64,000 nucleotides of DNA, from the sequence record OR544956, one strand, 5' to 3'. The stretch comes from Escherichia phage vB_EcoM_EP57. The notes under the pieces were generated by a model that was not told the DNA's origin, did not search any database, and saw only the letters and a program-made list of their open reading frames with translations. Positions 3,355 through 51,643 of the stretch are shown piece by piece. Numbering within the stretch: position 1 is the first letter of the stretch; each line of letters opens with the position of its first letter. A program made the position numbers and the translations under genes.

Positions 3355-3450
3355 GATAACCTCGTAGTAATGATAATGCCAAAAGGAAGATGCAAGATCT
3401 TCCCATATTGATTATTGTAACACATATAGAAACTTCGTGTCAAGGGAAAC

Positions 3451-3473
3451 GAAAAAACCCCGCCGAAGCGAGG
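3451..3473 (-). terminator. putative rho-independent terminator downstream of tape measure gene
   Basis: GC hairpin (ccccgcc..cgagg, one mismatch) followed on the minus strand by TTTTTT. Confidence 0.35.
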
Positions 3474-3480
3474 TATTTTA

Positions 3481-5325
3481 TTAACCACCAGTGTTAGATT
3501 GTCCACTTAGAGTTGAAAGAGATAAACGTTGGAAAATGCTATTTCCGCTATTTTGAATTCTTGCATCAAGAATATTTCCAAACTCTGAAGAAGGGCTGAT
3601 CGTAACTTTGATAAGATCACTTGGTATTGCTACCGTATTCTCAACAACAGGTTGATTACGAGCCAAACTTACATTAGGTGTATATGCCGACTGACGTAAA
3701 TCTTCCAGAGGATTACCAAATCCAAAAGCACGTGTCCTTGTTTGTTCTCCTCTCCACATACGACCAATATCTTGTGTATCAATACCTGTTAAATTGTACA
3801 ACCAATCTGCTACAGGATTGCTGTCTCCACTTTGCGTTGCCTCGTATGCTTTTTGTGCTAAAGATTTATTAGGATCTGTGTCTTTAACGTTATCCAACCA
3901 AGAATCATCTTTAGGTAAGGCTTTCACAAAACCCTCTAAGAAGTGGTTCTGCATACCTTGACCTACAAGCTGAACTGTTGCAGCAAAACGAGTAAACTCT
4001 TTAGAAGCATCTATTTGTTCTTGAGTTAATGTTGCACCTGTTCTTTGAAGCATTTTCAATACTTCATTATACCCTTCGCCGTTTTTACTAAACATACGTT
4101 GGTAGTGCATAAGGTCATCACCAAGGTTTTCAAGAAGTCGCCCGATTTGAGCAGAGTTCATACCTCGACGCTCACCTTCATTAACAGTAGCCTGAATAAA
4201 AGCTAAAGGATCGTTCTGTAAAGGTTTAAGCTGTTCTGGATTCCATCCAAACAAGTTCATAATGTCATTTATGCCATTATCACCGCCTTTCCACTTCCCT
4301 TCTTTCTCATTCCATTTTGAGGCTAAAACTGTATTACCAAGACGTTCACGAACGTCTTTAATATTATCTATTGACTTAATAATATTTGCAGAGTCTACAC
4401 CGTTCTGTTCACCCCAAGCTGTCATCGCTAAAATAGAGTTGGCGTTTGTCTGAACGTTTTCAGCGCCACGACTTACAAGTTTAATTCTTTCGTTAGTATT
4501 CATCAACGTGTTACCAACTACAGAACCACCTGCAAACAGCCCAGCACCTATTAAAGAGGATGCAATCATGCGTGGATTAAGACCTGCTGCACCTTCTTTT
4601 AATTGTCCATATCGACGATCACGATCACGTTTTTGTTGAGCTAATTCACGCTTACGGTTGCGTTCTATATCTCTAAGTTCACGATTTCGCATACGTATAC
4701 GCATTTTAGCTTCTGCTTCTAGCTCTCTACGAATACGGCGACGACCGCGAACCTCGTCTTCTATTTCAGCATTCTTTTCACGATGAGATCTGCGTAAGGC
4801 ATCTAACTGGTGAGCAAGAGCTTGGTTCATACGTTGAAGAGTTATTTCACCCTTTTTGTATTGCTCTACAGCTTTACCCATAACGTCCCTAGCTTCTTGC
4901 ATAGCCCCAGGACTGGCTTTACTAAATGCTCTTGCTCTGTAGTTAAAGTTCTGCAAACGAAGATTACCTAAATCTTCCCTACGTGCTGCTGCTTTAGCTT
5001 CGCGTTCAGCAGCTTTACGAGCTTTTTCTTCTTCTCTTCCTTGCGGGGTTTTAGGAGTTCTAGGTCTACCAGATCCGCCTACAGGAGCACCCGCTCCAGC
5101 GGGAGTAGGTGCTCGCATAGGTTTTTGACTTTGAGTTTGAGCTTTCTTAAGTTCACGCTCAATCTCTTTCATTTGTTGTCTAAACTTGGTCATGTTCATA
5201 GTGGGTTGCATTTTATTTGCAAACTTCTGAACACTCAACACGGCATCTTTTGCTTCCTTGAGACTGTTCTTGTCCACCTTAAACGTAACCACGTTACTAA
5301 TTTTGGAGGCGTTAATTTCTAACAA
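3481..5325 (-). CDS. tail tape measure protein
   Basis: 614 aa; long charged coiled-coil region; Gly-rich hydrophobic segment (IASSLIGAGLFAGGSVVG); directly downstream of a frameshifted chaperone pair. Confidence 0.55.
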   Translation of the reverse strand: MLEINASKISNVVTFKVDKNSLKEAKDAVLSVQKFANKMQPTMNMTKFRQQMKEIERELKKAQTQSQKPMRAPTPAGAGAPVGGSGRPRTPKTPQGREEEKARKAAEREAKAAARREDLGNLRLQNFNYRARAFSKASPGAMQEARDVMGKAVEQYKKGEITLQRMNQALAHQLDALRRSHREKNAEIEDEVRGRRRIRRELEAEAKMRIRMRNRELRDIERNRKRELAQQKRDRDRRYGQLKEGAAGLNPRMIASSLIGAGLFAGGSVVGNTLMNTNERIKLVSRGAENVQTNANSILAMTAWGEQNGVDSANIIKSIDNIKDVRERLGNTVLASKWNEKEGKWKGGDNGINDIMNLFGWNPEQLKPLQNDPLAFIQATVNEGERRGMNSAQIGRLLENLGDDLMHYQRMFSKNGEGYNEVLKMLQRTGATLTQEQIDASKEFTRFAATVQLVGQGMQNHFLEGFVKALPKDDSWLDNVKDTDPNKSLAQKAYEATQSGDSNPVADWLYNLTGIDTQDIGRMWRGEQTRTRAFGFGNPLEDLRQSAYTPNVSLARNQPVVENTVAIPSDLIKVTISPSSEFGNILDARIQNSGNSIFQRLSLSTLSGQSNTGG

Positions 5326-5345: not shown

Positions 5346-6094
5346 TTAAACAAGTTTCTTAAACAAATCTGACATTTTATTTGTCTGGTTTTGATGTTTT
5401 CTCTTTATTGAAGTGTCTTTAACATACATGGCTTCAACATACTCTTCGTATGTTAAATACTCATATAGTTTTAAAAGATAATCTACACCGTAGTTATCCA
5501 ATGTTTTCAGTGTTTCCGAGGTATCTTTAACGACTTTGCAAAGAATAACCTCATACCACTTCAAAGTAAGGGTTTTCGTTGCTGTGTCGATAGCATGTTC
5601 AATCGCAGGTGTTAATTTGCTGCTAAACTCGTCATCGCCTGAAGCTGTGTGAACAGTTTTCCGAAACCTCGTTTGAAAAAAGGGCCGTAGTTTACCTCCA
5701 GAACTTTAGCAGTAAGATCTAACACTAGTTCTGGGTGAGCCATAAATAATTCATCAAAATTTTCTGCAACGTTATAACCGTCTTGAGTATAAACCTCATC
5801 TAAAATTTTACGCAAAAATACAGTTAAATTCTTTTCTTCCAAACCTGCAAAAAGTTGGATCAGTGCCATAGCAATACGTGACTCAAGGTCTTCGTCTGCG
5901 GACATTGTTGCTGTGCTATACATAGTCATAGGAACAACCAGAACACTACCCAATTCTGGAATCCTGTCAAACACTTTAGATGGACTCCACTTCATAATAC
6001 GGAAAGTAACAGATCTGTTTCCATCTAACGGAATCTCAACTACTTCTTCTGGTCGAGCATATTTTTGAATCGTGTTATCTTGTTCTTGTGACAT
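5346..6094 (-). CDS. tail assembly chaperone, -1 frameshift fusion product (GT-like)
   Basis: -1 frame is open from the slippery site (plus 5675..5681) through the 5346..5564 ORF. Confidence 0.45.
5612..6094 (-). CDS. tail assembly chaperone (short, G-like product)
   Basis: 160 aa ORF upstream of tape measure; slippery T_TTT_TTC near its 3' end. Confidence 0.5.
   Translation of the reverse strand: MSQEQDNTIQKYARPEEVVEIPLDGNRSVTFRIMKWSPSKVFDRIPELGSVLVVPMTMYSTATMSADEDLESRIAMALIQLFAGLEEKNLTVFLRKILDEVYTQDGYNVAENFDELFMAHPELVLDLTAKVLEVNYGPFFKRGFGKLFTQLQAMTSLAAN
5675..5681 (-). promoter_or_regulatory. -1 programmed ribosomal frameshift slippery heptamer T_TTT_TTC
   Basis: Minus-strand codons ccT TTT TTC in the zero frame of the chaperone gene. 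Confidence 0.45.
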
Positions 6095-6139
6095 ATTTTC
6101 CTCTCTAATGATAAAAAGGGCATTTCTGCCCTTTATTTA

Positions 6140-6591
6140 TTATTGAATTGTCAGAGCAGAGATTGAGTTAAGGGTGCTCAAACCTACACCAACTTCATTA
6201 CGCAGAAGACTTGCATCTTTAAGACCAATAACCCATTGGTTCTCTGTAATCATTTCGCCAATAGTATCTTCAGGCTGACTTTGAATCCATCCAATCGTGC
6301 TAATGTAATAGCCACGTGGGTCTTCCAAGTAAACACTGAACGCTACTTGACGAGTAGAATACATTGTTTGTGCATATGTTGCAAGCAAGACATTGTGAGT
6401 GTTCCCAAACGGTTACGACTCAAAGCTAGTGAAACGTCGCCATCAGTCCCTGAATAAGGGTTGATAATATCGTTAGATTTAGCAATAACGATTTTAGTAT
6501 CAGCCGCAAAACCCCACGGTTCCCAACCACCTAATGAAAGGATAACTTGAGATGGGTCGTAGGCCATTACGCCAGTAAGCATTTTATCCAT
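6140..6591 (-). CDS. tail tube protein-like gene, reading frame disrupted (ORFs 6343..6591 and 6140..6388)
   Basis: Two overlapping same-strand ORFs; second is in the -1 frame; RBS AAGAGGA before ATG at 6591; position between sheath-like and chaperone genes. Confidence 0.35.
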
Positions 6592-8045: not shown

Positions 8046-8684
8046 TTATTCGGTAGGGTTGTTAAATAATGATCCATTTTGATTGACTGACGAGTATTCG
8101 CCTGGAACCAAAGTAATTGCATAAACCCTGTTTAGAATTAAATCTAAAGGGATAGGATCATTGTAACTATCTCTGAATGAACGGATGTGCATGTTGATTG
8201 CTTCTATTGGTGTAGTAGCAATATCTTCAATACTCATACGAGTGTTGAACGTCATAACCATACGCGCTCTTAATTCAGTCTTATCTCCGTCTACAATTGT
8301 ATTGGCTTGAGCTATATTGGAGGCTCCTAAAAAACCAAGACCTTTAGAATAGAGATGTTTGTATTTTAATTCCTCTGCACCACGGAGAGCAGCCAGAACA
8401 TAGCTCATCAAAGTGGTAGGTCTTCCACGATAGGCTACAAGTTCAATCTCGTAGGTATTATCCATCTCGTAGGAATACATATCATTTTGAATAGAGCTTC
8501 GGTAAGACCAACCTCCAGAATCGCTGGAAGTGATAATATGTAGTGCTAGGTAAGGAGTATCCGGTTTAATGAATGGCTTATCCATAACATAGACTGGCAA
8601 CCCCACTAATTCTTGAAGGAAGCCACCTATATTTAAGTAGATGGCATTTTCGTATGCTTCTATTTGTTGGTAAATATTAGCCAC
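8046..8684 (-). CDS. hypothetical virion protein
   Basis: ORF track 212 aa; between head and tail genes. Confidence 0.3.
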   Translation of the reverse strand: MANIYQQIEAYENAIYLNIGGFLQELVGLPVYVMDKPFIKPDTPYLALHIITSSDSGGWSYRSSIQNDMYSYEMDNTYEIELVAYRGRPTTLMSYVLAALRGAEELKYKHLYSKGLGFLGASNIAQANTIVDGDKTELRARMVMTFNTRMSIEDIATTPIEAINMHIRSFRDSYNDPIPLDLILNRVYAITLVPGEYSSVNQNGSLFNNPTE

Positions 8685-8780
8685 TGTTCTGTTCCTTGTT
8701 GTAACCCCTTCATTTCTGTTTTAGTCCAGAAACTATATTGAGCCTTAGATCTGTAACCTTCAGGTAGTGCATTCAGTGTT

Positions 8781-8972
8781 TTACCAGATATCGGTTGTAA
8801 GCTTGCCTTCAATGGTAAATGGTTCATATTCTACACTACTTTCTAAGTTAGCAATAACTGAACCAACAGCCTCTTTGTAGACTCGTCTACGACCTTGGTA
8901 TTCAGTTAGATCAAGGAGAGTAAATTGATCTAGTAACACTTGTATCTCCTTTTTAGTATACATCAAAAACAA
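8781..8972 (-). CDS. hypothetical protein
   Basis: ORF track 63 aa. Confidence 0.25.
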   Translation of the reverse strand: MFLMYTKKEIQVLLDQFTLLDLTEYQGRRRVYKEAVGSVIANLESSVEYEPFTIEGKLTTDIW

Positions 8973-17682: not shown

Positions 17683-17965
17683 TGATCGTTTGTTTCTTCT
17701 TCTCTAAATCTGCTTTTAATTGTGCATTGTTTTTAGACAAGTTGTTTATTTGAGTATTTAATAATGCTCTTTCTTCATCTGCTCTTTTTTGAAGAACATC
17801 AAAATCTTGTTTTGCTTTTGCTTGGGCTGCTTGATATACTTGCGTTTGATAGGCAACACCATCTTTGTAGCCAGACTCACGTATCTTGTTATAAGCAAAC
17901 ATTCCGGCAAGAATAAGAACAACAATTAAAACAAAACTTAATACAGTTTTAGTCTTTAGATTCAT
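17573..17965 (-). CDS. i-spanin-like protein
   Basis: N-terminal TM helix (VLSFVLIVVLILAGMFAY) then coiled coil. Confidence 0.4.
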   Translation of the reverse strand: MNLKTKTVLSFVLIVVLILAGMFAYNKIRESGYKDGVAYQTQVYQAAQAKAKQDFDVLQKRADEERALLNTQINNLSKNNAQLKADLEKKKQTINEDTTNYAKTNSGSMSCFAPNDDGLFIINKSFPSSY

Positions 17966-18830: not shown

Positions 18831-18909
18831 TGGAGGCGGGAATTGGATTTGAACCAATGATCTCCAGCATATGAAACTGGCGAGGACGACCAGACTCCTC
18901 TATCCCGCT
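18831..18909 (-). tRNA. tRNA-Met (anticodon CAT), 1-72 pair unpaired
   Basis: Hand-folded cloverleaf; T-loop TTCAAAT; anticodon loop TTCATAT; CCA encoded; A1 opposite C72. Confidence 0.55.
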
Positions 18910-18915
18910 ATTATG

Positions 18916-18985
18916 TATCCCGTGCTGGATTCGAACCAGCATCACAATAAGCTGTGGAACTCTTATCCTGTAAGTCTAACGGGAA
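18916..18985 (-). tRNA. tRNA-like element, non-canonical anticodon arm (possible pseudo-tRNA)
   Basis: Canonical T-arm GCTGG-TTCGAAT-CCAGC and 6-bp acceptor stem, but no 5-bp stem with 7-nt loop can be formed; no CCA. Confidence 0.3.
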
Positions 18986-18987
18986 AC

Positions 18988-19061
18988 TGGTTGTTTCGAC
19001 AAGAATCGAACTTGTGTCTCACGATTATCAGTCGTGGGTTCTACCATTGAACTACGAAACA
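18988..19061 (-). tRNA. tRNA-Ile (anticodon GAT)
   Basis: Hand-folded; anticodon stem CACGA/TCGTG, loop CTGATAA; CCA encoded. Confidence 0.65.
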
Positions 19062-19067
19062 TTAAAT

Positions 19068-19144
19068 TGGTCGGAATTGCAGGATTCGAACCTGCGACCC
19101 TACGCTCCCAAAGCGTATGCTCTACCAAACTGAGCTAAATTCCG
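19068..19144 (-). tRNA. tRNA-Pro (anticodon TGG)
   Basis: Hand-folded; D-stem GCTC/GAGC; loop TTTGGGA; T-loop TTCGAAT; CCA encoded. Confidence 0.65.
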
Positions 19145-19237
19145 TCATAACATTCTAAAGGTACACCGCAAAAGAAAGTGTTCGGCGGCTCCTCGTTTTT
19201 AACTTCACACTTGAGGTAGTGACTCACCTTTGTTATA

Positions 19238-19313
19238 TGGCTGGTCTGTCTGGATTTGAACCAAACCTACGACAGTCAAAGTGTCGTGTGCTACCGGACT
19301 ACACTACAAACCA
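19238..19313 (-). tRNA. tRNA-Gln (anticodon TTG)
   Basis: Hand-folded; anticodon stem CGACA/TGTCG, loop CTTTGAC; CCA encoded. Confidence 0.65.
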
Positions 19314-19411
19314 ATAAATCATTTAATGAAGGGCAACCAGAAGAGGTGTGAGAGAAGGAGAAAACCATGAGTAAAAGAGAAAGTTTTCTGGCAACCCTTT
19401 ATTAAATAATT

Positions 19412-19485
19412 TGGAGCGTTCTACGAGGATCGAACTCGTGCCGCCGACTTGGAAGGACGGAATGCTACCGCTACACCAAGAACGC
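19412..19485 (-). tRNA. tRNA-Gly (anticodon TCC)
   Basis: Hand-folded; loop CTTCCAA; one U-U mismatch in anticodon stem; CCA encoded. Confidence 0.6.
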
Positions 19486-19493
19486 CCTACATC

Positions 19494-19523
19494 TTTACTA
19501 TACTACATTTTACTATTGGTTGT
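19494..19523 (-). promoter_or_regulatory. sigma70-like promoter upstream of tRNA-Gly
   Basis: Minus strand AACTATTGACAA, 18-nt spacer, TATAGT. Confidence 0.4.
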
Positions 19524-19801
19524 CAATAGTTTTATTGAGTGGGACAGTGACGAGTATCCCGTTGGGTGACTAGCCCTACGTTCGGTAAGCTAACTTAAAA
19601 TAATACAAAACCAAAGTCAAATATTATTCTTCGTTGCTGTCGATGGGAGAGCCGCTTCTCATTTTGCCCCATCCAACCCTACTCCGGTCAAGTTTCGGGT
19701 AACTCTTTTTGTGTGATCAACACAATACTAAGAACACTGTCTTTCGAACAGACCTTGTGCACAGGATACGACGATCAATCACAGTGCTCTTAATGTTGTG
19801 T

Positions 19802-19876
19802 TGGTGCTCCCACACTGAATCGAACAGAGATCCACGGATTACAAAACCGTTGTAATAGCCATTATACTATAGGAGC
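19802..19876 (-). tRNA. tRNA-Thr (anticodon TGT)
   Basis: Hand-folded; loop TTTGTAA; T-loop TTCGATT; CCA encoded; one mismatch at 31-39. Confidence 0.55.
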
Positions 19877-19882
19877 AAAGCT

Positions 19883-19959
19883 GGGACTCGGCAGGATTCG
19901 ATACCTGCAATTCCAGAAGCCTCTTGGCGACTGGGGGTTTACCTTAACTCTACAAGTCC
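19883..19959 (-). tRNA. tRNA-like element, non-canonical (8-nt T-loop, no standard anticodon arm)
   Basis: 7-bp acceptor stem GGACTTG/CGAGTCC; T-loop TATCGAAT; central region forms an irregular hairpin; no CCA. Confidence 0.3.
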
Positions 19960-19966
19960 ATAATTC

Positions 19967-20052
19967 TGGCGATGAGTATAGGATTTGAACCTATATCGTT
20001 CTTTCGAACACGGATTAACAGTCCGCCGCTTAAACCATTCAGCCAACTCATC
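19967..20052 (-). tRNA. class II (Ser-type) tRNA with anticodon GTT
   Basis: 86 nt; Ser-like D-arm TG-GCT-GAATGGTTTA-AGC; anticodon arm GCGGA-CTGTTAA-TCCGT; 15-nt variable arm with GTTC/GAAC stem; G73; CCA. Confidence 0.5.
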
Positions 20053-20058
20053 TTAATT

Positions 20059-20146
20059 TGGTGGTGAGTGATGGAGTTGAACCACCCGAATCGCAATGAT
20101 AACAGATTTACAGTCTGCCCCGCTACCCCTACGGAATTAACTCACC
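20059..20146 (-). tRNA. tRNA-Tyr (anticodon GTA)
   Basis: 88 nt class II; anticodon arm GCAGA-CTGTAAA-TCTGT; T-loop TTCAACT; CCA. Confidence 0.65.
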
Positions 20147-20224
20147 TAAATACTAATATTTAAATTCTTTTTAAAATAGCCAGTGTTCACACCACTAACT
20201 ATGTAAGCCATATTAAAAAGAACT

Positions 20225-20310
20225 TGGCGGTAGATGTAGGACTCGAACCTACACGCCGTTTCCGACTACAGTTTAGCAAACTGTCGTGGCTACCATTTCA
20301 CCAATCTACC
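20225..20310 (-). tRNA. tRNA-Ser (anticodon GCT)
   Basis: 86 nt class II; anticodon arm ACAGT-TTGCTAA-ACTGT; G73; CCA. Confidence 0.65.
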
Positions 20311-20315
20311 TAATC

Positions 20316-20406
20316 TGGCGGAAGGAGGGAGAGTCGAACTCCCAAGGCTCTTTCAAGCTCGGCGGTTTTCAAGACCGTTTTCGTCGCCACGTCGATTTGC
20401 CCTTCC
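20316..20406 (-). tRNA. tRNA-Ser (anticodon TGA), D-arm degenerate
   Basis: 91 nt; anticodon arm CGGT-CTTGAAA-ACCG; variable-arm hairpin GCTT-GAAA-GAGC; G73; CCA; D region lacks U8 and a regular stem. Confidence 0.5.
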
Positions 20407-20640
20407 ATACTTATAATCTAACATAAAATAATGTTTGTTGTCAATAGTTTTTTAAAACATTTTACCATGAATGGTGACTCCACCAACCCCCGTTCTCCAC
20501 GAACGGTGCTCTTCGAGCATTTATGTCTTCTAATATAACCGTGGCCTTTGTTTATAATGTCTGACATACTTGCCTCATTCTCTGCCACCATGATCAGTAG
20601 TGGGTTCAAATTACTTGAGCTAATTCATGTTAAAATGTTC

Positions 20641-20715
20641 TGGTGTCTTTACAAGGAATCGAACCTTGACTAAGAGTTTAGAAGACTCCTGTGCTATCCA
20701 TTACACCATAAAGAC
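20641..20715 (-). tRNA. tRNA-Arg (anticodon TCT)
   Basis: Hand-folded; anticodon arm GGAGT-CTTCTAA-ACTCT; CCA. Confidence 0.65.
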
Positions 20716-20717
20716 GT

Positions 20718-20792
20718 TGGTGGCCCTGGCTGGTTTCGATCCAGCTACCTATCGGTTATGAGCCGACAGCTCTCCCATTGAGCTACAGGGCC
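20718..20792 (-). tRNA. tRNA-Met or tRNA-Ile2 (anticodon CAT)
   Basis: Hand-folded; D-stem GCTC/GAGC; anticodon arm GTCGG-CTCATAA-CCGAT; T-loop ATCGAAA; CCA. Confidence 0.6.
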
Positions 20793-21782: not shown

Positions 21783-22192
21783 CTATAGATCAAGTATTAT
21801 TTATAATAATTTATTATTTTATTTTTAATTGATAGAAGTTGATCTGTACGTACCAGTTCTGATACACTGTACCTGTTTGTTAGATCTAATAATTATTTAT
21901 TATTAATATTTAATAATTATTAATCTAGTACGGAGTACAGTACTTGAGTACAGAGTACTACATCAACGACCTAAAACCTTAACTCGCTGCGCTCGTTAAT
22001 AGATTTCTAGGGTAACATACTTCGAACACAAAAGTCAAGAGTTTTATTAAAAATTATTTTCTGTGTGCAAAAACCTTGCTTAAACAGGTAGCAATAGTAT
22101 TAAGAGGCTGTAGAGCAAGTTTACTTACTAGGTAAGGTGATTTATCATCTTATATATAAAAAGTGCGTCAGAGACGCGTTTAGGAGGCTAGA

Positions 22193-22609
22193 ATGAGATT
22201 TACAAGACAAGAGGTAGTTGTACTTGACGAAGCAATGACAATGATCGTCTTTTACTATGAGGATATCTTCTGTGCAGCATATCATTTAAATGATATTCAG
22301 ATTGAATGGAAGCAGATAGCATTCCTGTTGGACAAGAGTAATCATTTGGATGGCTTTGAGTATTTGGAGTGGGATGGTGCAAAGGAAGTTAAAATTGTAG
22401 GGTTAAATCACGATCAGATTGTTGACATGCAATGTAAGTTGTGTCATTATCAGTTCTCAAACAATCCTGGCAACAATTGTTCTGATTTTTGCCATGTGTG
22501 TGGTTCACGATGTTCTGGTAAGCTACTTTTGAAGACACAAGATGTGTCCTACAGCCGTGTTACGCTTACTGGCGACCATACCCCAATCATGGAGTACGTA
22601 AAGAAATGA
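22193..22609 (+). CDS. hypothetical Cys-rich protein
   Basis: 138 aa; GGAGG RBS; first rightward gene. Confidence 0.4.
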   Translation: MRFTRQEVVVLDEAMTMIVFYYEDIFCAAYHLNDIQIEWKQIAFLLDKSNHLDGFEYLEWDGAKEVKIVGLNHDQIVDMQCKLCHYQFSNNPGNNCSDFCHVCGSRCSGKLLLKTQDVSYSRVTLTGDHTPIMEYVKK

Positions 22610-23409
22610 GCAACTATCCAATTACAGGCGTAACCTATTCTTGTGTAGCAAAAGGTGGTTTATATACAGTAGTGGAATTTCCAAAACCTGCCGGAATATC
22701 TAAAGTGTTTGATCCTGTGGTTATCTATGAAGATCTTAGAACAGGTCAACGTTACTGGAGATTTGTGAATGACTTTTTAGATCGTATGGAGGTAGTAAGT
22801 GGCGAAAACACCGAAGAAGTTATCAAAGCCAACGTTACTAAGAAACCGAAAAACGAGGTTCTCAAAGTAGCCAAATCAGTTCCTAAGAAAGATAAATTTG
22901 ATACGGAGGCATTCGTCTTTGACACACCAATCGAGAAGATTGAAGAAGCGTTGCAACGTCTTGAGGAGCAGGAGGCAGATCCAATGGCTGAACCACTCGC
23001 TGAAGCAAAAAACATTGGTCGTTCCAATGAAACAACACCAGAAGAACAAGCTGAACTTGAAGCTTTTGCCAAATGGACAAAACAGTTAAAGAATGGCTAT
23101 TATAAAACAAAAGAAGAAGCTGAAAACCATGTTCCTTCCACACCAATGAAATGCCAGGATTATAAAGATTATCCTGAAAGGGTTGTGTTCCCTGGTTATG
23201 CACAATACAAACTGAACGGGTTACGTTCTATGATTAACATGAAAGGAGAGTGTTTATCAAAAGCTGGGGAAGTGTACAACCTGCCACCTCATTGGAAAGG
23301 TATTCCAAACTTTATTAGTGAAGTTGTTGGTCATCCTCTTGATGGTGAAGTGTTTGCTGGGTTAGGTGTCCTTAGTCTGCAACAAATTAACAGTGCTTGC
23401 AGTAGTTGA
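22606..23409 (+). CDS. ATP-dependent ligase-like nucleotidyltransferase, N-terminal part (frame-interrupted)
   Basis: Motif I-like KLNGLR and motif III-like HPLDGEVF near the C-terminus; ORF ends soon after. Confidence 0.4.
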   Translation: MSNYPITGVTYSCVAKGGLYTVVEFPKPAGISKVFDPVVIYEDLRTGQRYWRFVNDFLDRMEVVSGENTEEVIKANVTKKPKNEVLKVAKSVPKKDKFDTEAFVFDTPIEKIEEALQRLEEQEADPMAEPLAEAKNIGRSNETTPEEQAELEAFAKWTKQLKNGYYKTKEEAENHVPSTPMKCQDYKDYPERVVFPGYAQYKLNGLRSMINMKGECLSKAGEVYNLPPHWKGIPNFISEVVGHPLDGEVFAGLGVLSLQQINSACSS

Positions 23410-23869
23410 AGATTATGGTCTTGATGAGCTTATTTGTGTAGTTCATACAGAGTATATTGAAAACCAAGAACAGTTTGATGCTTTCTATGAAAAAGCTTTA
23501 CTTGAGAAAGCTGAAGGTGTAGTATATCGTAATGCTCACGGAGTTTACGAATTTGATAAACGTTCTTATGACGTTATTAAACGTAAGCCTCGCCATACGC
23601 TTGAAGTTAAAGTAATAAATTCAAAAAGTGATAAAAATGGCGATGGAGTGTTGACAGGTGAGATGGAAAATGGTAAAGTAGTCGAATTCTTAATGCGTAA
23701 AGATGCTCATGAGACTATCAATTATCGTAAAGCAGAGAATGCTTCTACCTTGATTAATCAGTTCGTTGAAATAGAGTATGAAGAATTTTCAGATGAAGGT
23801 ATTCCAACAAAACCTGTTGGTGTTCGTATTCGAGAAATGATCCCAGGCACTTGGGAACCAGCAGAATAA
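23366..23869 (+). CDS. ATP-dependent ligase-like protein, C-terminal part (+1 frame)
   Basis: Motif IV-like EGVVYR and motif V-like VIKRKP; overlaps upstream ORF by 44 nt. Confidence 0.4.
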   Translation: MSLVCNKLTVLAVVEDYGLDELICVVHTEYIENQEQFDAFYEKALLEKAEGVVYRNAHGVYEFDKRSYDVIKRKPRHTLEVKVINSKSDKNGDGVLTGEMENGKVVEFLMRKDAHETINYRKAENASTLINQFVEIEYEEFSDEGIPTKPVGVRIREMIPGTWEPAE

Positions 23870-23922
23870 GGAGGAAAAATGTTCTTAGCTTATCATTGTG
23901 CAAAATACCTGGAGGCATTTTT

Positions 23923-24105
23923 ATGATAATTTTAGCAACAATTCTTATGATGTTGATAGCAATTGCTATTATAATTCTGGCATCTTTTCCGGCGGATAAA
24001 TGGTATTTCAATATTCCACGTATGCTTGTTTTCGGTTTCGCAGGGATTTACATGGGTGAGTCTGTAGTAAATATTAGCAACTTTCTAGAAAGCTATTTTA
24101 AATAA
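23923..24105 (+). CDS. small membrane protein
   Basis: ATG after GGAGG; two hydrophobic helices (MIILATILMMLIAIAIIILA...). Confidence 0.3.
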   Translation: MIILATILMMLIAIAIIILASFPADKWYFNIPRMLVFGFAGIYMGESVVNISNFLESYFK

Positions 24106-24114
24106 GGAGTTATA

Positions 24115-24828
24115 ATGATCGAGAATTTTTTTAAAGATATTAAATTCGATACTGAATTTTTCAAAAATGCAGCAAAGCACGTAATTGATTGGAATGCCAA
24201 AGCACGAGGTGGTGAACAACCTGAATTCACTCAAGAGCTATTTATGTCCCAAATCGGGTTCGTTCGTGAAGAGCTTAAAGAGTATGAAACAGCCGCGAAA
24301 GTAAACGATCATGTAGAACTCTTGGATGCAGCAGCGGATATTTTTGTAGTATCCAGTTATCTTACTTACATGTTCTTTGGTGAAGAACATACGATGAATT
24401 TCTTGGACTATGCTGTAGGCGATGTTTTTACTCCAACTGTGTATACTGATTTTGATGCTTTGGAACAAACATTTACAGAGCCAGTTCAAATGGCACTAAT
24501 GGCTGCTGGTATTATGCGTATGTCTCGTGACACTCTAATCCGTTCAAAATATCCAGAAAAGAAAGTTATTAAAGAGGTATTGAAAAGTAATGATTCCAAG
24601 TATCCAACTAAACAACAGTTGCTGAAAACTTGGAAAACTTCGGATATCGATTCAGCCATTGCACAAGAATGCGCTGCAATTGAAGAACGAAATGCCAATC
24701 GTCCAGAAGGGGCATACACTGGTGTTCATGCTGTTTATAATGAAAAACAGAAAGTGTATGTGTTCTTTGATGATAAAGGTAAGATCATGAAACCATCGAC
24801 CTTTGTCAAACCTAATATTAATAAGTAA
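24115..24828 (+). CDS. hypothetical protein (weak MazG-like NTP pyrophosphatase resemblance)
   Basis: 237 aa; acidic helical motif VREELKEYE...DHVELLDAAADIFVV. Confidence 0.3.
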   Translation: MIENFFKDIKFDTEFFKNAAKHVIDWNAKARGGEQPEFTQELFMSQIGFVREELKEYETAAKVNDHVELLDAAADIFVVSSYLTYMFFGEEHTMNFLDYAVGDVFTPTVYTDFDALEQTFTEPVQMALMAAGIMRMSRDTLIRSKYPEKKVIKEVLKSNDSKYPTKQQLLKTWKTSDIDSAIAQECAAIEERNANRPEGAYTGVHAVYNEKQKVYVFFDDKGKIMKPSTFVKPNINK

Positions 24829-24884: not shown

Positions 24885-25763
24885 ATGTTTGTAAAATCTT
24901 TTAAATCCGCTCTGCCTATGGTTGTTGGTGACAATGCTTCTGTAGCATCCCTTAACAGCATTACAGATATTCCTCTGGAATTTGTAACAGCAGAAGGCTC
25001 CCAGTCACACACTATTGGTCTTGTTCGTTTTGAAGATGACTCTAAATTTGTAAAAGAGTTCTCAGATCTTGAACTGCTTAATGTAGGTCAATCTGTGAAG
25101 AAGGTAGATAAAAAGAAAGTTAAACGTATTCTGAATGAACGTCTAGAAGAAATGCGTCAGGACATGGAGAGCGAAGGTAAAGAGTTTTATGTCGATAAAG
25201 AAGTAGTCAAAGCAATGAAGGAAGATATTGAATTTGCACTATTGCCTGAAACAGAACCTGAAGATTTCTTTAACTATGTTGTCTTGGATAAAACTACGAA
25301 TCTTCTTTATGTTCTTAATGGAAGTAAAAAGGTTGCAGAAGAGATTACTTCTTTCCTCCGTTCCGTTCTGGGGACTTTCCCTTCGGTAGGTTTTAGTGTG
25401 CATGAAGAAGCTATTGTAAAAGGTTTTGGTGAATTGCTGGAGAATCACGAAGCAGATCGTATTACTCTCGGAAATTATATCAAAATGGAGGATAGCGAGG
25501 GCGTTGTTGTTTGGAGTAAAGAATCCCTATACGAGTCTAAAGCTGTCGAACTAAAAGAAGATGGTAAAGATGTTGTTGCAATCGGTCTTGAATATGACGG
25601 TGTTGTAGATTTTGTAGTGGATAAAGAGTTTAAACTTTCTAAACTACGTTTTCCGAAATATTTTGCAGACGAAGAAGGTAGTATTGAAGCTTCAGTCCTT
25701 CTGTGCTTCAATGAGATTCGAGGTCTGATGGAAGATTTAACCAAAGCAACAATCCTTAAATAA
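24885..25763 (+). CDS. hypothetical protein
   Basis: ORF track 292 aa; RBS AGGAGG. Confidence 0.4.
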   Translation: MFVKSFKSALPMVVGDNASVASLNSITDIPLEFVTAEGSQSHTIGLVRFEDDSKFVKEFSDLELLNVGQSVKKVDKKKVKRILNERLEEMRQDMESEGKEFYVDKEVVKAMKEDIEFALLPETEPEDFFNYVVLDKTTNLLYVLNGSKKVAEEITSFLRSVLGTFPSVGFSVHEEAIVKGFGELLENHEADRITLGNYIKMEDSEGVVVWSKESLYESKAVELKEDGKDVVAIGLEYDGVVDFVVDKEFKLSKLRFPKYFADEEGSIEASVLLCFNEIRGLMEDLTKATILK

Positions 25764-25767
25764 GTTC

Positions 25768-25796
25768 TTGACTTGCGGGATTAGTTATGATATTAT
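25768..25796 (+). promoter_or_regulatory. sigma70-like promoter
   Basis: TTGACT, 17-nt spacer, TATTAT. Confidence 0.4.
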
Positions 25797-25835
25797 GCCT
25801 ACCTACTTAATGAGGTAGGCTTTTTAGGAGGCGTT

Positions 25836-26045
25836 ATGAAAAAGATTCTGACAGTCGTTCTTTTAGCTTTTAGTTTCACAGTAGCAGCAGGTCAAATTAC
25901 TTTAATCTTGTCTGATTCTGAAGTTAATGGCAATACAAAATATTGCTACTATTCTAACGCTAACCAAGATGAAGTTATAGCAATCCCGAAAAGTCGTCAA
26001 TGTCCGTATACTAAAACATTCTCAACAGAGGATGACGATGAATAA
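25836..26045 (+). CDS. small secreted protein
   Basis: 69 aa with signal peptide MKKILTVVLLAFSFTVAAGQ. Confidence 0.35.
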   Translation: MKKILTVVLLAFSFTVAAGQITLILSDSEVNGNTKYCYYSNANQDEVIAIPKSRQCPYTKTFSTEDDDE

Positions 26046-26069
26046 TTAGGGGGAAATATTAGCGGTTAT

Positions 26070-27176
26070 ATTTTAATTAAGCCTGAAGATCTTCATTTAT
26101 ATGTCAACGAAGAAACAATAGCTGCAATTGATTATGATCAGATCGCTTTCCAAGCAGCGTCTGCATTAGAGAAAAGAACAATCATTGCAAAGCACATCCC
26201 TTCAGGTGCTCAAAAGGAATTTAAAAATAAGACAGAGTTTTGGGGTAAAAGCAAGACTAAGATTGGAGGTTGGCTAGGAGATACAAATGCAGAAAGAGCC
26301 TCCAAAAACAAACGTCCCTTCACAAAGGAAGAGTTCGAAATCATTGATAAGCAATACCCGCCAGAAGATATCGGACACACCTTCCAAGCAGCTAAAACAA
26401 AAGTCTTAGGTATTCTAAAACATCTACGTTTAGAAAAATATTGCGGAGTTATTGGCGTAGGAAAAACTTTCAGACACGCCTTCAAAATGCCTGTAGAATA
26501 TAAATCTGAACGATTAGATATCAAACCACTTCAGCTTTCAGAAACCAAAGATTATCTTGTGGAGTTCCACAATGGTGATGTTGTTACTGTAATAGAAGCT
26601 GATGATGAGTTAGAGAAGTATGGTTTCCAAGGTTATAAAGATTATAAAAGGACGGGTAAATTTTCTTATATCGTTGTATCTATAGATAAAGATAGTTTAC
26701 ATACTCCTAGTATCCTTTTTAATTTCTACAAAGAGGATGGAGTATTTAAAAATCCAGATATAATTCTTATTGACGAGTCTATTGGCGATATATGGATCGT
26801 AGATAAAGGTAAAAAGAAAGAAGTTAAAGGTTGGGGCAGTTACTGGTTAGCATATCAGATGCTAATGGGAGATAAAACAGATAGTATCCGACCTTATCAA
26901 GATTTTGATATTAAGTTCGGAGATATTACTTGTTTTAATCTTCTTTCAGCTTGTAAAACTCAAGCAGAACTTTTCCAAACAGTTAAAGACACTTACTACT
27001 CATGGTTCCCAGAGGGTGTTAATTTTACTTCTTGGGATGGAGAAGAAGTCCATATGACAACAGATGAATGGATAGAAACAATTTTCCAGTTGGTATACAT
27101 GAAACGCTGGGATAATGACGATACAACATTTGAGAGTATGCTTCAGTCATACATCTCGCAACAGGAGGCAGAGTGA
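26070..27176 (+). CDS. 5'-3' exonuclease / flap endonuclease (T4 RNase H-like); start codon uncertain
   Basis: Frame open from 26046 with IDYDQIA and GDKTDSIRP motifs; first in-frame ATG only at 26487. Confidence 0.45.
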   Translation: MLIKPEDLHLYVNEETIAAIDYDQIAFQAASALEKRTIIAKHIPSGAQKEFKNKTEFWGKSKTKIGGWLGDTNAERASKNKRPFTKEEFEIIDKQYPPEDIGHTFQAAKTKVLGILKHLRLEKYCGVIGVGKTFRHAFKMPVEYKSERLDIKPLQLSETKDYLVEFHNGDVVTVIEADDELEKYGFQGYKDYKRTGKFSYIVVSIDKDSLHTPSILFNFYKEDGVFKNPDIILIDESIGDIWIVDKGKKKEVKGWGSYWLAYQMLMGDKTDSIRPYQDFDIKFGDITCFNLLSACKTQAELFQTVKDTYYSWFPEGVNFTSWDGEEVHMTTDEWIETIFQLVYMKRWDNDDTTFESMLQSYISQQEAE

Positions 27177-28126
27177 GCAGATTAACAGAAGAGCAGAAAG
27201 CAGATATCCTTAGTATGAGTGCAGAGGGTATGTCTTCTCGTAATATTGCAGCAATTGTTTTAGGTAGTCCAACAAGAAAAAGCACAGTGAACGATTTCCT
27301 TGCACGATTAAGTAAACAAGAGCCAGTTAAAAAGAAACAACCCGTTATTAAAATTATTGATGTTGAAACTGCACCAGAGATTGCATATACTTTCCGTCGA
27401 TTCAAAGCCTTCATTTCTCCAGATCAAGTAATTCGTAGGGGTTATTTGTTATCTTACTCTTCTGCTGACCTATATACTGGTGAAGTGGAAGGTAAGAACT
27501 TGTCTTCTTATCCTCTTTTTGATATTGATCATACAGATGATTGGGAGCTTTGCCAAGATCTTTGGAACCTTCTGAACGAGGCAGATGTAGTTGTGGCACA
27601 CAACGGGTATAAGTTTGACCGTGCATACATTAACCAACGATTTGCATATCACGATATGGCTCCTCCTTCTAATTATGTAGTTGTTGATACATTGAAGGCA
27701 GCTAAGAAACAATTTGCACTTCCTTCCAACTCCCTTAAAGAAATGGGAGCATATTTCGAAACAGAAAGTGAAAAACTGGATAACGAGGGGTTCCCTTTAT
27801 GGAAAGCATGTTGTGAAGGTGATCGTGATGCTTTTGAACGTATGCAGATTTACAATGATGGTGATGTTGTTTCACTCCGTGATTTGTATATGAAAATCCT
27901 TCCGTGGATTCCACAGCATCCTAACTTATCCGCTTATTACCCAGATGAGAAAGTCCGTTGTTCTCGTTGTGGCAGTGATCACGTTCACGTTGTTACTGGT
28001 AAGCAATACCACACTGCGGTAAGTTCTTTCGATATCATTCGTTGTGAATCTTGCGGCGGTTTGTCACGTAGTAGAGCAAACACCAGATCCAAGGATAAAC
28101 GAGCAGCAACTATCATTGGAATCTAA
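27173..28126 (+). CDS. DEDD-family 3'-5' exonuclease with N-terminal HTH and C-terminal zinc ribbon
   Basis: Exo motifs IIDVETAPE, VVAHNGYKFD, YNDGD; CSRCGS...CESCGG. Confidence 0.5.
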   Translation: MSRLTEEQKADILSMSAEGMSSRNIAAIVLGSPTRKSTVNDFLARLSKQEPVKKKQPVIKIIDVETAPEIAYTFRRFKAFISPDQVIRRGYLLSYSSADLYTGEVEGKNLSSYPLFDIDHTDDWELCQDLWNLLNEADVVVAHNGYKFDRAYINQRFAYHDMAPPSNYVVVDTLKAAKKQFALPSNSLKEMGAYFETESEKLDNEGFPLWKACCEGDRDAFERMQIYNDGDVVSLRDLYMKILPWIPQHPNLSAYYPDEKVRCSRCGSDHVHVVTGKQYHTAVSSFDIIRCESCGGLSRSRANTRSKDKRAATIIGI

Positions 28127-28184: not shown

Positions 28185-28367
28185 TCTGCTAACCACAATA
28201 AAAGGAGGAAATATGAGCATTACATTAACAGGTAACGAAATTTTCGAACTGTTTGAAATGTTAGGTTTGAACTATACCATCCGATGGTGATATTATCTAT
28301 CAAGGTAGGGTAGCTTATTATGCAGACTACCCAGAAGAAGGCGCAGTAGGAATTCAGGAGGAAAATT

Positions 28368-28769
28368 ATGTCTAATGCTTTTGATAATCAGGTTGACGGT
28401 GATCACTACACAAAGATGGCAATGCAACCTATTGAACTAGCTTATTTGGTTGGTGGCACACCTTGTTTTTGCAAATTGGCAAAATATGCAACACGTATTA
28501 AAGGTGAACGTCAGATTAACCTAGATAAAGCTATTCATTGTATTGAACTAGAAAGAACCCTTATGCAAAATAACACGTATATGGTTCGTGAAAATTATCC
28601 CTCTATGACAAATGCAGCTAAACATGATCAAGCTATGCTTCTTATTGATTTCTTCACAAAAGATCCTTTAATACGAGTAGCACTGAAACACATGTATAAC
28701 TCTTCTTATGTAGATGCAATCGAAGCTATTAAACAACTTAAGGAACGTATTAGTGGCGAGCAATACTAA
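28368..28769 (+). CDS. hypothetical protein
   Basis: ORF track 133 aa; RBS AGGAGG. Confidence 0.4.
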   Translation: MSNAFDNQVDGDHYTKMAMQPIELAYLVGGTPCFCKLAKYATRIKGERQINLDKAIHCIELERTLMQNNTYMVRENYPSMTNAAKHDQAMLLIDFFTKDPLIRVALKHMYNSSYVDAIEAIKQLKERISGEQY

Positions 28770-41169: not shown

Positions 41170-41673
41170 TTGATGGGTGTAGCAACAATAGCTATCGGAA
41201 GAAGCGGTATAGATGAGTGCTATCAAACGGGACTCGTAAAACCTAACGAATTTCGTCAAATTTGTGTAAACCATATTGAAAAAGAGATTGCTCTTACTTT
41301 AGAGAATATGACCCTCCGAGATAAACTGGAAATGTTTAAATGTTGGTGTCTAGGAGAAGATTGGCTTTTAAACCATTTTCAAGAACTTTCTGATAGTAAA
41401 GAAAGCTTGTTTGATTGTATAATAGGAATAGCTGGCTCCGATCCTAGCCTTCTGCACATAACAGAAGAAGAGGCGAAGTTACTGTTCTTAAGTAATTTGT
41501 TTAATAAGAAAGCACTGCTTGTTCGTGATTGCAGTGATCTTCTTAATAACCCGCTCGCAACGTCTGATCAAATTTTTGTTGACAAAGAGACACTACGTGC
41601 GATAGAATACATCTGCAAATATGTGAATGGTGGGAAAGCGGTTCTTAAAACATTAACAGAGGAGGAAGAATAG
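41170..41673 (+). CDS. hypothetical protein
   Basis: ORF track 167 aa. Confidence 0.35.
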   Translation: MMGVATIAIGRSGIDECYQTGLVKPNEFRQICVNHIEKEIALTLENMTLRDKLEMFKCWCLGEDWLLNHFQELSDSKESLFDCIIGIAGSDPSLLHITEEEAKLLFLSNLFNKKALLVRDCSDLLNNPLATSDQIFVDKETLRAIEYICKYVNGGKAVLKTLTEEEE

Positions 41674-42275
41674 TGACGACAATTATTGCAACCAAAAATA
41701 AGATTTTGAGTGATGGTAAGGTAACTTTTGGTGGACGTGTAGATTCTATTAATTTCAAAAAGGTCCGAAAAATTGGAGATTACCTTGTGGGTGGTGCTGG
41801 TCGTCTGACCTCCGTGCTTTCTTTCTTTCAATGGTTTGAACAAAATCTACAGTGCGAAGCAGCACGTGATGCTGTCCCTGGTTTGATGATTCACTCTGAT
41901 CCAGATAAAGAAGATGAAGAGTTTATTGCACTTGTTGTTCATCCAGACGGACGTATTTTCCTGCACGAAGGTAACAACCCAACACGTGCATATCCGATTG
42001 ATGAAGAATATTATGCGGTAGGAAGTGGGTCAGACTTTGCTTTAGCTGCTCTTGATGCAGGGGCAACACCAGAACAGGCTATGGAAGTAGCTAAAAAGCG
42101 AGATGCTTTTTCTGGTGGTGAAACATTTATTGAAGAACAAGACGAGATTATTGAATTAACAGACGATGATTTAGAAAACTTCTCCAAAGAAGAATTGATC
42201 AATCTTTTGAAATTCGGTAATCCCTACGGTGAAGAAGAACCTCGTAACGTGGCAGGGTTGCAGAAAACAACTTGA
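41673..42275 (+). CDS. HslV / proteasome beta-subunit-like Ntn-hydrolase peptidase
   Basis: N-terminal MTTII (Thr nucleophile after Met removal), GGAGR and AVGSGSDFALAA blocks; acidic C-terminal tail. Confidence 0.5.
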   Translation: MTTIIATKNKILSDGKVTFGGRVDSINFKKVRKIGDYLVGGAGRLTSVLSFFQWFEQNLQCEAARDAVPGLMIHSDPDKEDEEFIALVVHPDGRIFLHEGNNPTRAYPIDEEYYAVGSGSDFALAALDAGATPEQAMEVAKKRDAFSGGETFIEEQDEIIELTDDDLENFSKEELINLLKFGNPYGEEEPRNVAGLQKTT

Positions 42276-42382
42276 CTTCTAAATCTGAAAATATTAATCT
42301 CGTAAATGTGGCGGATTTCGAAGGAACCGCTATTTAACAAACTGCCCCTTCGGGGGCATTTCTTAAACATAGGAGATTAATA

Positions 42383-51047: not shown

Positions 51048-51409
51048 TGCCGATATCTGAACAAAGCCTCCTGTTTCAGGGGGCTTTTCTTTTATAGGAG
51101 GGAATATGTTTCAATGCACATTGGTTGGTGAGCAAACTAAAAGAAAAAGAGAAACCATTTCCTACTCTGCTTGATCGTTCTCTTGTGGAAGATGCAGGTA
51201 AAGCATATGCAGACTATGCGTATGCAGACGGGAAATATTTGGAAGATGATAAGGCTAACCATTTGCTTTATGTTTACTATGAAGCTGAATCTGCCTACGA
51301 TAATTATTACAGCATGTCTAACATCCTACGTCTGTTTGCAGAGTTTGATATTTATTAAACAAATAAACCACTCAAGGGGCTTCGGCCCCTTTCTTATTAG
51401 GAGAATAAA

Positions 51410-51643
51410 ATGACTGAAGAAATCCGTGATTACTACCTTGCACATTACGTTTACTACTTTGCCAATGCTACACAAAAAGGGGAAGGTAATCTTTACTTGG
51501 CAACAGGACATGGAACAGGCGTTAGGAAATCAGAAGATAAACTTCAAACACCTGTAGTTGTAGTGATGCAAAACATAAGTTACCTAGCAAGTTGTACTGA
51601 AACCGAATTTAACGCGTCTGAAACGCAATCTAACGAAGAATAA
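51410..51643 (+). CDS. hypothetical protein
   Basis: 77 aa; RBS AGGAGAA; last rightward gene. Confidence 0.35.
   Translation: MTEEIRDYYLAHYVYYFANATQKGEGNLYLATGHGTGVRKSEDKLQTPVVVVMQNISYLASCTETEFNASETQSNEE

Follow-up and report, generated by a model that had tools for sequence, protein, structure and literature searches.

Does the ligase gene of Escherichia phage vB_EcoM_EP57 really change reading frame halfway along its length, and if it does not, what produced the two overlapping ORFs seen in its deposited sequence? The window analysed here, that is, the whole stretch of 64,000 nt taken from GenBank record OR544956, belongs to a phAPEC8-like Phapecoctavirus (Stephanstirmvirinae) and shares ~99% identity with phages tuntematon and nieznany. 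ORF1 (22606-23409, 267 aa, frame 1) and ORF2 (23366-23869, 167 aa, GTG start, frame 2, thus +1 relative to ORF1) lie on the plus strand and overlap over 23366-23409, both frames being open for 41 nt (23366-23406), exactly as an earlier note had described them from the letters alone. That note read the pair as a ligase-like nucleotidyltransferase split by a +1 frame change, offered sequencing error, gene decay or recoding as causes, and took the motif K-x-N-G as a possible sign of an RNA ligase. According to our analysis, the flagged split most likely has no biological reality. The two ORFs are remnants of one ATP-dependent DNA ligase gene, 371 codons long in phAPEC8-like phages. The absence of 107 nt mid-gene (codons 180-215) places the downstream half in the +1 frame, and the absence of 4,044 nt takes away codons 1-46 together with ~13 genes and fuses the remainder in frame to two unrelated small-gene pieces.

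Identity of the two ORFs

The relation to ligases, which the earlier note had itself put up for refutation by alignment, held, and it points to DNA rather than RNA ligase folds. The 371-aa DNA ligase of phAPEC8-like phages (YP_007348494.1 in phAPEC8, YP_009986138.1 in nieznany, YP_009986564.1 in tuntematon) is matched by the EP57 pieces with 100% protein identity over residues 47-179 and 216-371, with PF01068, phrog_114 and DNA-ligase folds all in agreement, and EP57 shares with these phages the same downstream genes, namely a small ORF, a nucleotide pyrophosphohydrolase gene and an RdgC-like gene. Unlike theirs, the EP57 gene has neither codons 1-46 nor codons 180-215, is interrupted in its frame and is joined on its 5' side to fragments of two unrelated genes. 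Motifs I (KLNGLR, 23209-23226) and III (HPLDGEVF with the core LDGEV, 23332-23355) were confirmed in ORF1 and motifs IV (EGVVYR, 23513-23530) and V (VIKRKP, 23573-23590) in ORF2, where a motif-VI-like PVGVRIRE (23813-23836) follows in the OB domain. These assignments are backed by alignment to the Lig E structure 4D05, which pairs KLNGLR with KLDGIR, LDGEV with MDGEL, EGVVYR with EGLMLH and VIKRKP with LMKLKK, as well as YYVYDIP of the intact relatives with FMIFDLP. Searched alone against Pfam, ORF2 passes the threshold for PF01068 (DNA_ligase_A_M, 28.2 versus 26.2 bits), matching the profile at its C-terminal end only, and ORF1 alone gives nothing meaningful, a NAD_binding_4 match at E 0.04 being at chance level and disregarded.

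A 107-nt gap in a continuous gene

In nieznany the ligase gene is one continuous frame that aligns to 22999-23399 of the window at 99.5% and to 23399-24200 at 99.4%, with 107 nt absent between the two alignments (tuntematon L003:27762-27868, corresponding to 108,345-108,451 of NC_052660.1). The segment missing at the 23399/23400 junction, which shows 1 nt of microhomology, comprises ligase codons 180-215 (WKKHNANTPLLNYYVYDIPVPGLPFEKRVDALAALK), including motif IIIa, and because 107 = 3 x 35 + 2, the downstream half continues in the +1 frame. The frame change is a missing 107-nt segment and not a recoding signal, a statement that we make with near certainty. The earlier wording therefore stands as far as the frame of ORF2 is concerned, but the change is not a simple one, since a segment is absent. 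A junction-centred search returned a spacing of 247-248 nt in all 40 phage records listed versus 140-141 nt in the window. Phages of the phAPEC8 type match the ligase region at 97-99.5% identity, and no record collinear with EP57 across the locus was present among the megablast matches; likewise, the deletion junction sequence was not found in IMG/VR, GTDB genomes, JGI metagenomes or E. coli RefSeq. Translocation was tested by searching the rest of the window for the 107-nt segment and nine further missing segments; not one of them turned up.

The stretch that is open in both frames is made up of two by-products of the gap. ORF2 begins with 33 nt of ligase sequence in the wrong frame (23366-23398, a non-native GTG start and 10 further codons), and ORF1 ends with a three-codon out-of-frame tail (23400-23409, ..CSS and a TGA stop) that the gap created. 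Between and beyond these lie the genuine ligase parts, codons 47-179 (22999-23399), which span what is left of the N-terminal domain plus the first half of the adenylation domain, and codons 216-371 with the stop (23400-23869), covering the end of the adenylation domain and then the OB domain.

The window copy accordingly keeps a motif I of the form K-x-(D/N)-G-x-R with its catalytic lysine and, on the same polypeptide, motif III (xDGE), and it lacks motif IIIa, which forms an aromatic-x-D strand in the nucleotide pocket. The parts from motif IV onward, namely motifs IV and V and the OB domain with motif VI, are not contiguous with motifs I-III, lying in the +1 frame past the frame-1 stop codon, and the 4,044-nt gap leaves the N-terminal domain incomplete, without residues 1-46. 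With this residue content, the sequence as deposited cannot be expected to encode an active ligase.

The upstream join and the chimeric ORF1

By tblastn, ORF1 is a three-part, single-frame chimera, so that codons 1-131 of WPK29351.1, which is annotated as 'DNA ligase' and has 267 codons, are not ligase. Its start (22606-22830) represents codons 1-75 of a gp275 homologue (phrog_12584, function unknown), with 100% identity to residues 1-75 of tuntematon gp275 and a PHROG match, and it is followed on the same strand (22831-22998) by codons about 13-68 of a gp274 homologue ('transposase-like', phrog_6208; tblastn, which aligns residues 13-70, and PHROG), which a private 4-nt gap at 22831/22832 puts in the gp275 frame. 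At 22998/22999, a junction with 0 nt of microhomology, tuntematon position L003:23316 is joined to L003:27361, in frame by chance. The 4,044-nt gap so defined (L003:23317-27360) takes out ~13 upstream genes and ligase codons 1-46; in other relatives, where the cassette varies, the corresponding gap is 2.6-4.9 kb. The description of both ORFs as ligase thus applies to 22999-23399 of ORF1, not to its first 131 codons, and to ORF2 without its first 11 codons. ORF1 is the sole member of its 90% protein cluster, with EP57 as sole source, and an exact-sequence look-up gave EP57 as the only source of ORF1, ORF2 and the adjoining 138-aa and 237-aa ORFs (WPK29350.1-WPK29354.1).

Deletions across the window and in a sister record

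The two ligase lesions are part of a wider pattern, being 2 of 28 deletions that separate the window from tuntematon (6,215 nt in all, 1-4,044 nt each) alongside 0 insertions. Ordered by size, the deletions measure 1, 2, 4, 4, 6, 6, 7, 10, 12, 15, 20, 26, 28, 28, 38, 39, 51, 61, 63, 65, 107, 122, 135, 144, 152, 152, 873 and 4,044 nt. Over the 41 kb covered by six genomes, 16 deletions and 0 insertions are private to the window, whereas private deletions number 0-6 in each of the five relatives and are 1 nt long except for one of 3 nt and one of 88 nt; private substitutions in the same 41 kb are similar (67 in the window versus 26-359 in the relatives). Lengths divisible by three occur at chance level (11 of 28), and every deletion of >=15 nt has a junction microhomology of 0-2 nt. 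The mean microhomology of 1.2 nt slightly exceeds the random expectation of 0.73 nt (P about 0.01), an excess that comes from a few very small indels, which may be genuine. Deletion positions are not significantly clustered overall (coefficient of variation of spacing 1.10 versus 0.95 random, P=0.16). They are visibly dense at 20.2-24.8 kb of the window.

Conserved virion genes are among those affected, with gaps at 6386 and 8683. The conserved virion structural gene of phrog_280, flanked by the genes for tail sheath and tail chaperone, is frameshifted and appears in the window as two 82-aa ORFs (6140-6388 and 6343-6591); the minor head protein gene (phrog_4185) is truncated and frameshifted, an HslV-like peptidase gene and several small genes are frameshifted, and a Sir2-like gene is deleted. 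The paper describing EP57 reports that it forms plaques, has a contractile tail and carries 305 genes (PMC11657129), and it is unlikely that a plaque-forming phage with normal contractile tails carries such virion-gene lesions. At 130,723 bp, OR544956 is ~15-25 kb shorter than every relative (145-156 kb), yet its 305 annotated genes equal or outnumber theirs, which is the expected product of ORF fragmentation.

A similar signature was observed in OR544955, the record of vB_EcoP_EP32B, a T4-like Mosigvirus of an unrelated genus that was processed in the same study and pipeline as EP57. Compared over 24 kb with two independent relatives, EP32B displays a private, deletion-only pattern (142-247, 34-37, 73, 102-105, 15 and 50-53 nt), whereas a comparison of the two relatives with each other shows mainly 1-6-nt indels, plus one 105-nt difference. 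Its 73-nt gap splits the T4-type ligase gene into a 'DNA ligase' (21841-22179) and a 'hypothetical protein' (22173-23261), so that in both records a ligase appears as two annotated ORFs split by a private gap that is not a multiple of three, although the EP32B enzyme comes from another phage genus and belongs to another subfamily (497-aa T4-type). Because two unrelated phages carry the same odd signature, a technical cause is indicated, and on this comparison the likeness of EP32B would support a common technical cause, not common biology.

Origin of the gaps

Taking together the deletion-only pattern, the small amount of microhomology, the lengths without preference for multiples of three, the frameshifted virion genes and the sister record, artefacts of assembly or processing are the best explanation of the gaps and, in our judgement, a likely one. 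De novo SPAdes assemblies of Illumina data are not usual makers of dozens of internal deletions, and this counts against an artefact. Concatenation of contigs fits poorly as a cause, one retained piece being only 66 nt long and several gaps measuring 1-7 nt. A reference-guided consensus from which uncovered positions were silently dropped would fit, matching as it does a deletion-only, microhomology-free pattern, although the published procedure is a de novo assembly (SPAdes 3.13, Illumina 2x150 reads, nominally deep data; PMC11657129).

The strongest competitor is that the deletions are real, either in EP57 or in the dominant genome of the lysate, which would make the ligase a true pseudogene and leave the phage to use the host NAD-dependent LigA. 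We regard this as improbable, though it has points in its favour: the sequence was deposited from a de novo assembly, its breakpoints are clean and several gaps fall in variable early-gene regions. Phage ligases can moreover be dispensable on ligase-proficient hosts, as in T7 and T4, so that a real loss of the ligase alone would not be absurd. What speaks against real deletions is that conserved virion genes of a viable phage are frameshifted in the same record, that lengths lack an in-frame bias and insertions are zero, that an unrelated phage from the same pipeline repeats the pattern, and that none of the other datasets searched holds the junction. In its full form, in which a viable Phapecoctavirus would have shed ~13% of its genome by dozens of microhomology-independent deletions, inactivated its ligase and become dependent on LigA, the scenario is less probable still; the apparently lethal structural-gene lesions would then need tolerance or complementation, and EP57 would stand out as a phage that tolerates massive erosion of its genome. 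Among the causes offered by the earlier note, error or deletion is thus favoured, and recoding drops out, since the relatives have no frame change and 36 residues would be lost in any case.

If the gaps are artefacts, the real EP57 phage probably carries an ordinary intact ligase gene, and the biological significance of the locus is small, the gene being that of a known phage DNA ligase. Its practical significance lies in the records themselves. Both OR544956 and OR544955 seem to be interrupted by many internal gaps yielding split, fused and truncated ORFs, which calls for caution with the records and with proteins derived from them; the three-gene chimera WPK29351.1 as well as WPK29352.1, both already in protein databases, can be mistaken for recoding, novel fusions or pseudogenes.

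The intact ligase family

The intact gene is a single 1,116-nt ORF coding for 371 aa in nieznany, tuntematon, phAPEC8, ASO2A, Mt1B1_P17 and ZCKP1, and the best 120 homologues in a set of 5.8 billion proteins are single proteins of 357-393 aa in which the deleted segment is present. An intact relative matches PF01068 end to end (1-204 of 204; 36.3 bits versus a cut-off of 26.2 bits) as well as phrog_114, 'ATP-dependent DNA ligase', and on these matches the family is assigned to the ATP-dependent DNA ligase of phAPEC8-like phages, an already known family.

D161 and E163 of motif III, which the EP57 copy retains, are invariant in the family alignment, and within the deleted stretch K182, T187, L190, Y195 (121/121) and R207 are invariant and D196 is nearly so (118/121); motif IIIa (YYVYDIP, residues 192-198) falls within the missing 107 nt. 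In the AlphaFold model of a 95%-identical intact homologue (P0001, pLDDT 92.6), residues 180-215 fall in the adenylation domain, where they make up the end of helix 173-181, the core strand 191-196 and the greater part of helix 204-220, and residues 1-46 supply four strands to the N-terminal domain.

By sequence, the solved structures closest to the family are those of Lig E (4D05), T4 ligase and the African swine fever virus (ASFV) ligase. By fold, the best PDB match of the intact homologue is ASFV DNA ligase (AsfvLIG, 6IMN/6IML/6IMK), which aligns over its full length, N-terminal domain included (TM 0.77, E 6e-25); sequence identity is only ~21%, and it is the intact relatives, rather than the broken EP57 copy, that show this likeness. 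T4 ligase, Lig E, Chlorella virus ligase, LigD and human Lig1 follow. Lig E (4D05, 6GDR), Chlorella virus (2Q2T) and T4 (6DT1) ligases have the same adenylation and OB core and the same motif order (I, III, IIIa, IV, V), but their motif I is K-x-D-G (seen directly for 4D05), as against K-x-N-G in the phage clade, which also has an additional N-terminal domain. To our knowledge, neither the near-universal K-x-N-G motif I of the intact family nor its ASFV-ligase-like N-terminal domain has been characterised biochemically.

Three further readings, namely an RNA ligase, recoding and a split enzyme, together command only a slight probability. That the Asn replacing the canonical Asp of motif I marks an RNA rather than a DNA ligase, as the earlier note had suggested, is very doubtful. 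Among 121 sequences, K, G and R of motif I are invariant (121/121 each) and Asn occurs in 112 versus Asp in nine, so that K-x-N-G is the norm of the clade and no peculiarity of the EP57 copy. The intact protein matches PF01068 end to end and also matches phrog_114, an OB domain is present in the intact homologue, its architecture is not that of an RNA ligase (Rnl), and all 50 PDB fold matches listed are DNA ligases. Several relatives, moreover, have a separate gene annotated as RNA ligase: in ASO2A and ZCKP1 it lies ~1.2 kb upstream of the DNA ligase gene, a position that falls inside the cassette missing from EP57 and is occupied by an unnamed ORF in Mt1B1_P17.

Recoding and a split enzyme

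Programmed +1 ribosomal frameshifting within 23366-23406, yielding one functional ligase, could draw on the 41 nt open in both frames and on the ligase motifs that go on in the +1 frame, but it has practically no chance of being correct. The protein is encoded in a single frame in the relatives and in all 120 homologues, the overlap is a by-product of the 107-nt gap, no prfB-like or other known shift site was seen by eye in the 23366-23409 overlap, and a joined product would lack motif IIIa with its core strand and helix (residues 180-215) as well as the first 46 residues.

A two-subunit ligase whose halves associate in trans, like the split NAD-dependent ligase genes of T5-like phages, would suit the sharing out of motifs over two adjacent ORFs and can be dismissed just as firmly, since the halves fall short of a whole enzyme by 36 internal and 46 N-terminal residues that occur nowhere else in the window, the GTG start of ORF2 lies within out-of-frame ligase sequence, and the arrangement is unique to OR544956.

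Deletions across the window

Compared with phage tuntematon, the window carries 28 deletions and no insertions between positions 326 and 63848, ranging in size from 1 to 4,044 nt and adding up to 6,215 nt. The first 14 junctions lie at 3881, 6386, 8683, 8806, 17333, 20203, 21780, 22100, 22463, 22529, 22831, 22998, 23399 and 24815, and the last 14 at 27309, 28281, 35662, 42256, 43852, 51114, 51356, 51531, 54086, 54186, 58053, 61574, 62444 and 63847. Five relatives allowed a comparison over 41 kb, and 16 of the deletions in that part were private to the window, i.e., absent from these relatives.

One private gap, of 51 nt at 20203, falls inside a cluster of ten tRNA genes (18831-20792, minus strand), for which ARAGORN called Met, Ile, Pro, Gln, Gly, Thr, Asn, Ser, Arg and Met/Ile-CAT, and it is flanked by the tRNA-Asn and tRNA-Ser genes. 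A tRNA-Tyr gene, annotated in phages ASO2A and phAPEC8 just upstream of the place of this gap, was not called by ARAGORN in the window cluster.

Genes altered by the deletions

Virion genes are among those hit. The conserved phrog_280 virion structural gene (6140-6591, minus strand), which sits between the genes for the tail sheath and the tail chaperone, encodes 159 aa in relatives. Here, a private gap of 27-28 nt at 6386 splits it into two ORFs of 82 aa each, a split of the same kind as that of the ligase gene. The minor head protein gene (phrog_4185, 8660-8972, minus strand; 138 aa in relatives) is frameshifted owing to a 2-nt gap at 8806 and loses its final ~52 codons to a 152-nt gap at 8683. 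The latter gap also adjoins the beginning of the following gene (8046-8684), whose start codon is now GTG.

Elsewhere, the 138-aa ORF annotated as WPK29350.1 (22193-22609, plus strand) is a chimera produced by two private gaps, one of 63 nt and the other of 135 nt. It joins residues 1-91 of tuntematon gp278, a 22-codon out-of-frame reading of gp277 DNA, and the 26 codons that end gp276. Three gaps of 152, 873 and 39 nt, all within 420 nt (51114-51532), led to the loss of the Sir2-like gene (tuntematon gp208) and the partial loss of gp209 and gp207. Two further plus-strand genes are frameshifted, namely the HslV-family peptidase gene (41673-42334), with a 28-nt gap at 42256, and the small gene gp254 (28213-28372), with a 65-nt gap at 28281.

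The intact ligase and its upstream cassette

Motif I reads K-L-N-G-x-R in 112 out of 121 intact phage ligase sequences (alignment A1), and we know of no biochemical work on this Asn variant. Judged from an AlphaFold model of an intact homologue, the predicted fold most closely resembles the African swine fever virus DNA ligase (TM 0.77), which is likewise the best match of the modelled beta-rich N-terminal domain.

In ASO2A and ZCKP1, the variable cassette immediately upstream of the gene for the DNA ligase holds a phosphoesterase gene and a gene annotated as Rnl1-like RNA ligase (ASO2A, 25028-25960; ZCKP1, 25593-26525). Mt1B1_P17 has an ORF without a name in the annotation at the matching position (24940-25872), and the annotated RNA ligase gene is missing from tuntematon, nieznany and phAPEC8. 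The window lacks the entire cassette.

The sister phage EP32B and the classification of EP57

Private gaps, of 34-247 nt, also occur in EP32B (Mosigvirus, OR544955.1), which was reported in the same study as EP57. There, a 73-nt private gap splits the T4-type DNA ligase gene (21841-23261), and further gap sites lie at 17951, 20197, 23289, 25447 and 33840. Going by the annotation only, the genes for the ssDNA-binding protein (3409-3973) and thymidylate synthase (5353-6196) also appear split; T4-type td genes may contain introns.

EP57 itself was assigned to the family Autographiviridae yet to the genus Phapecoctavirus (PMC11657129). Its sequence is that of a Stephanstirmvirinae myovirus.
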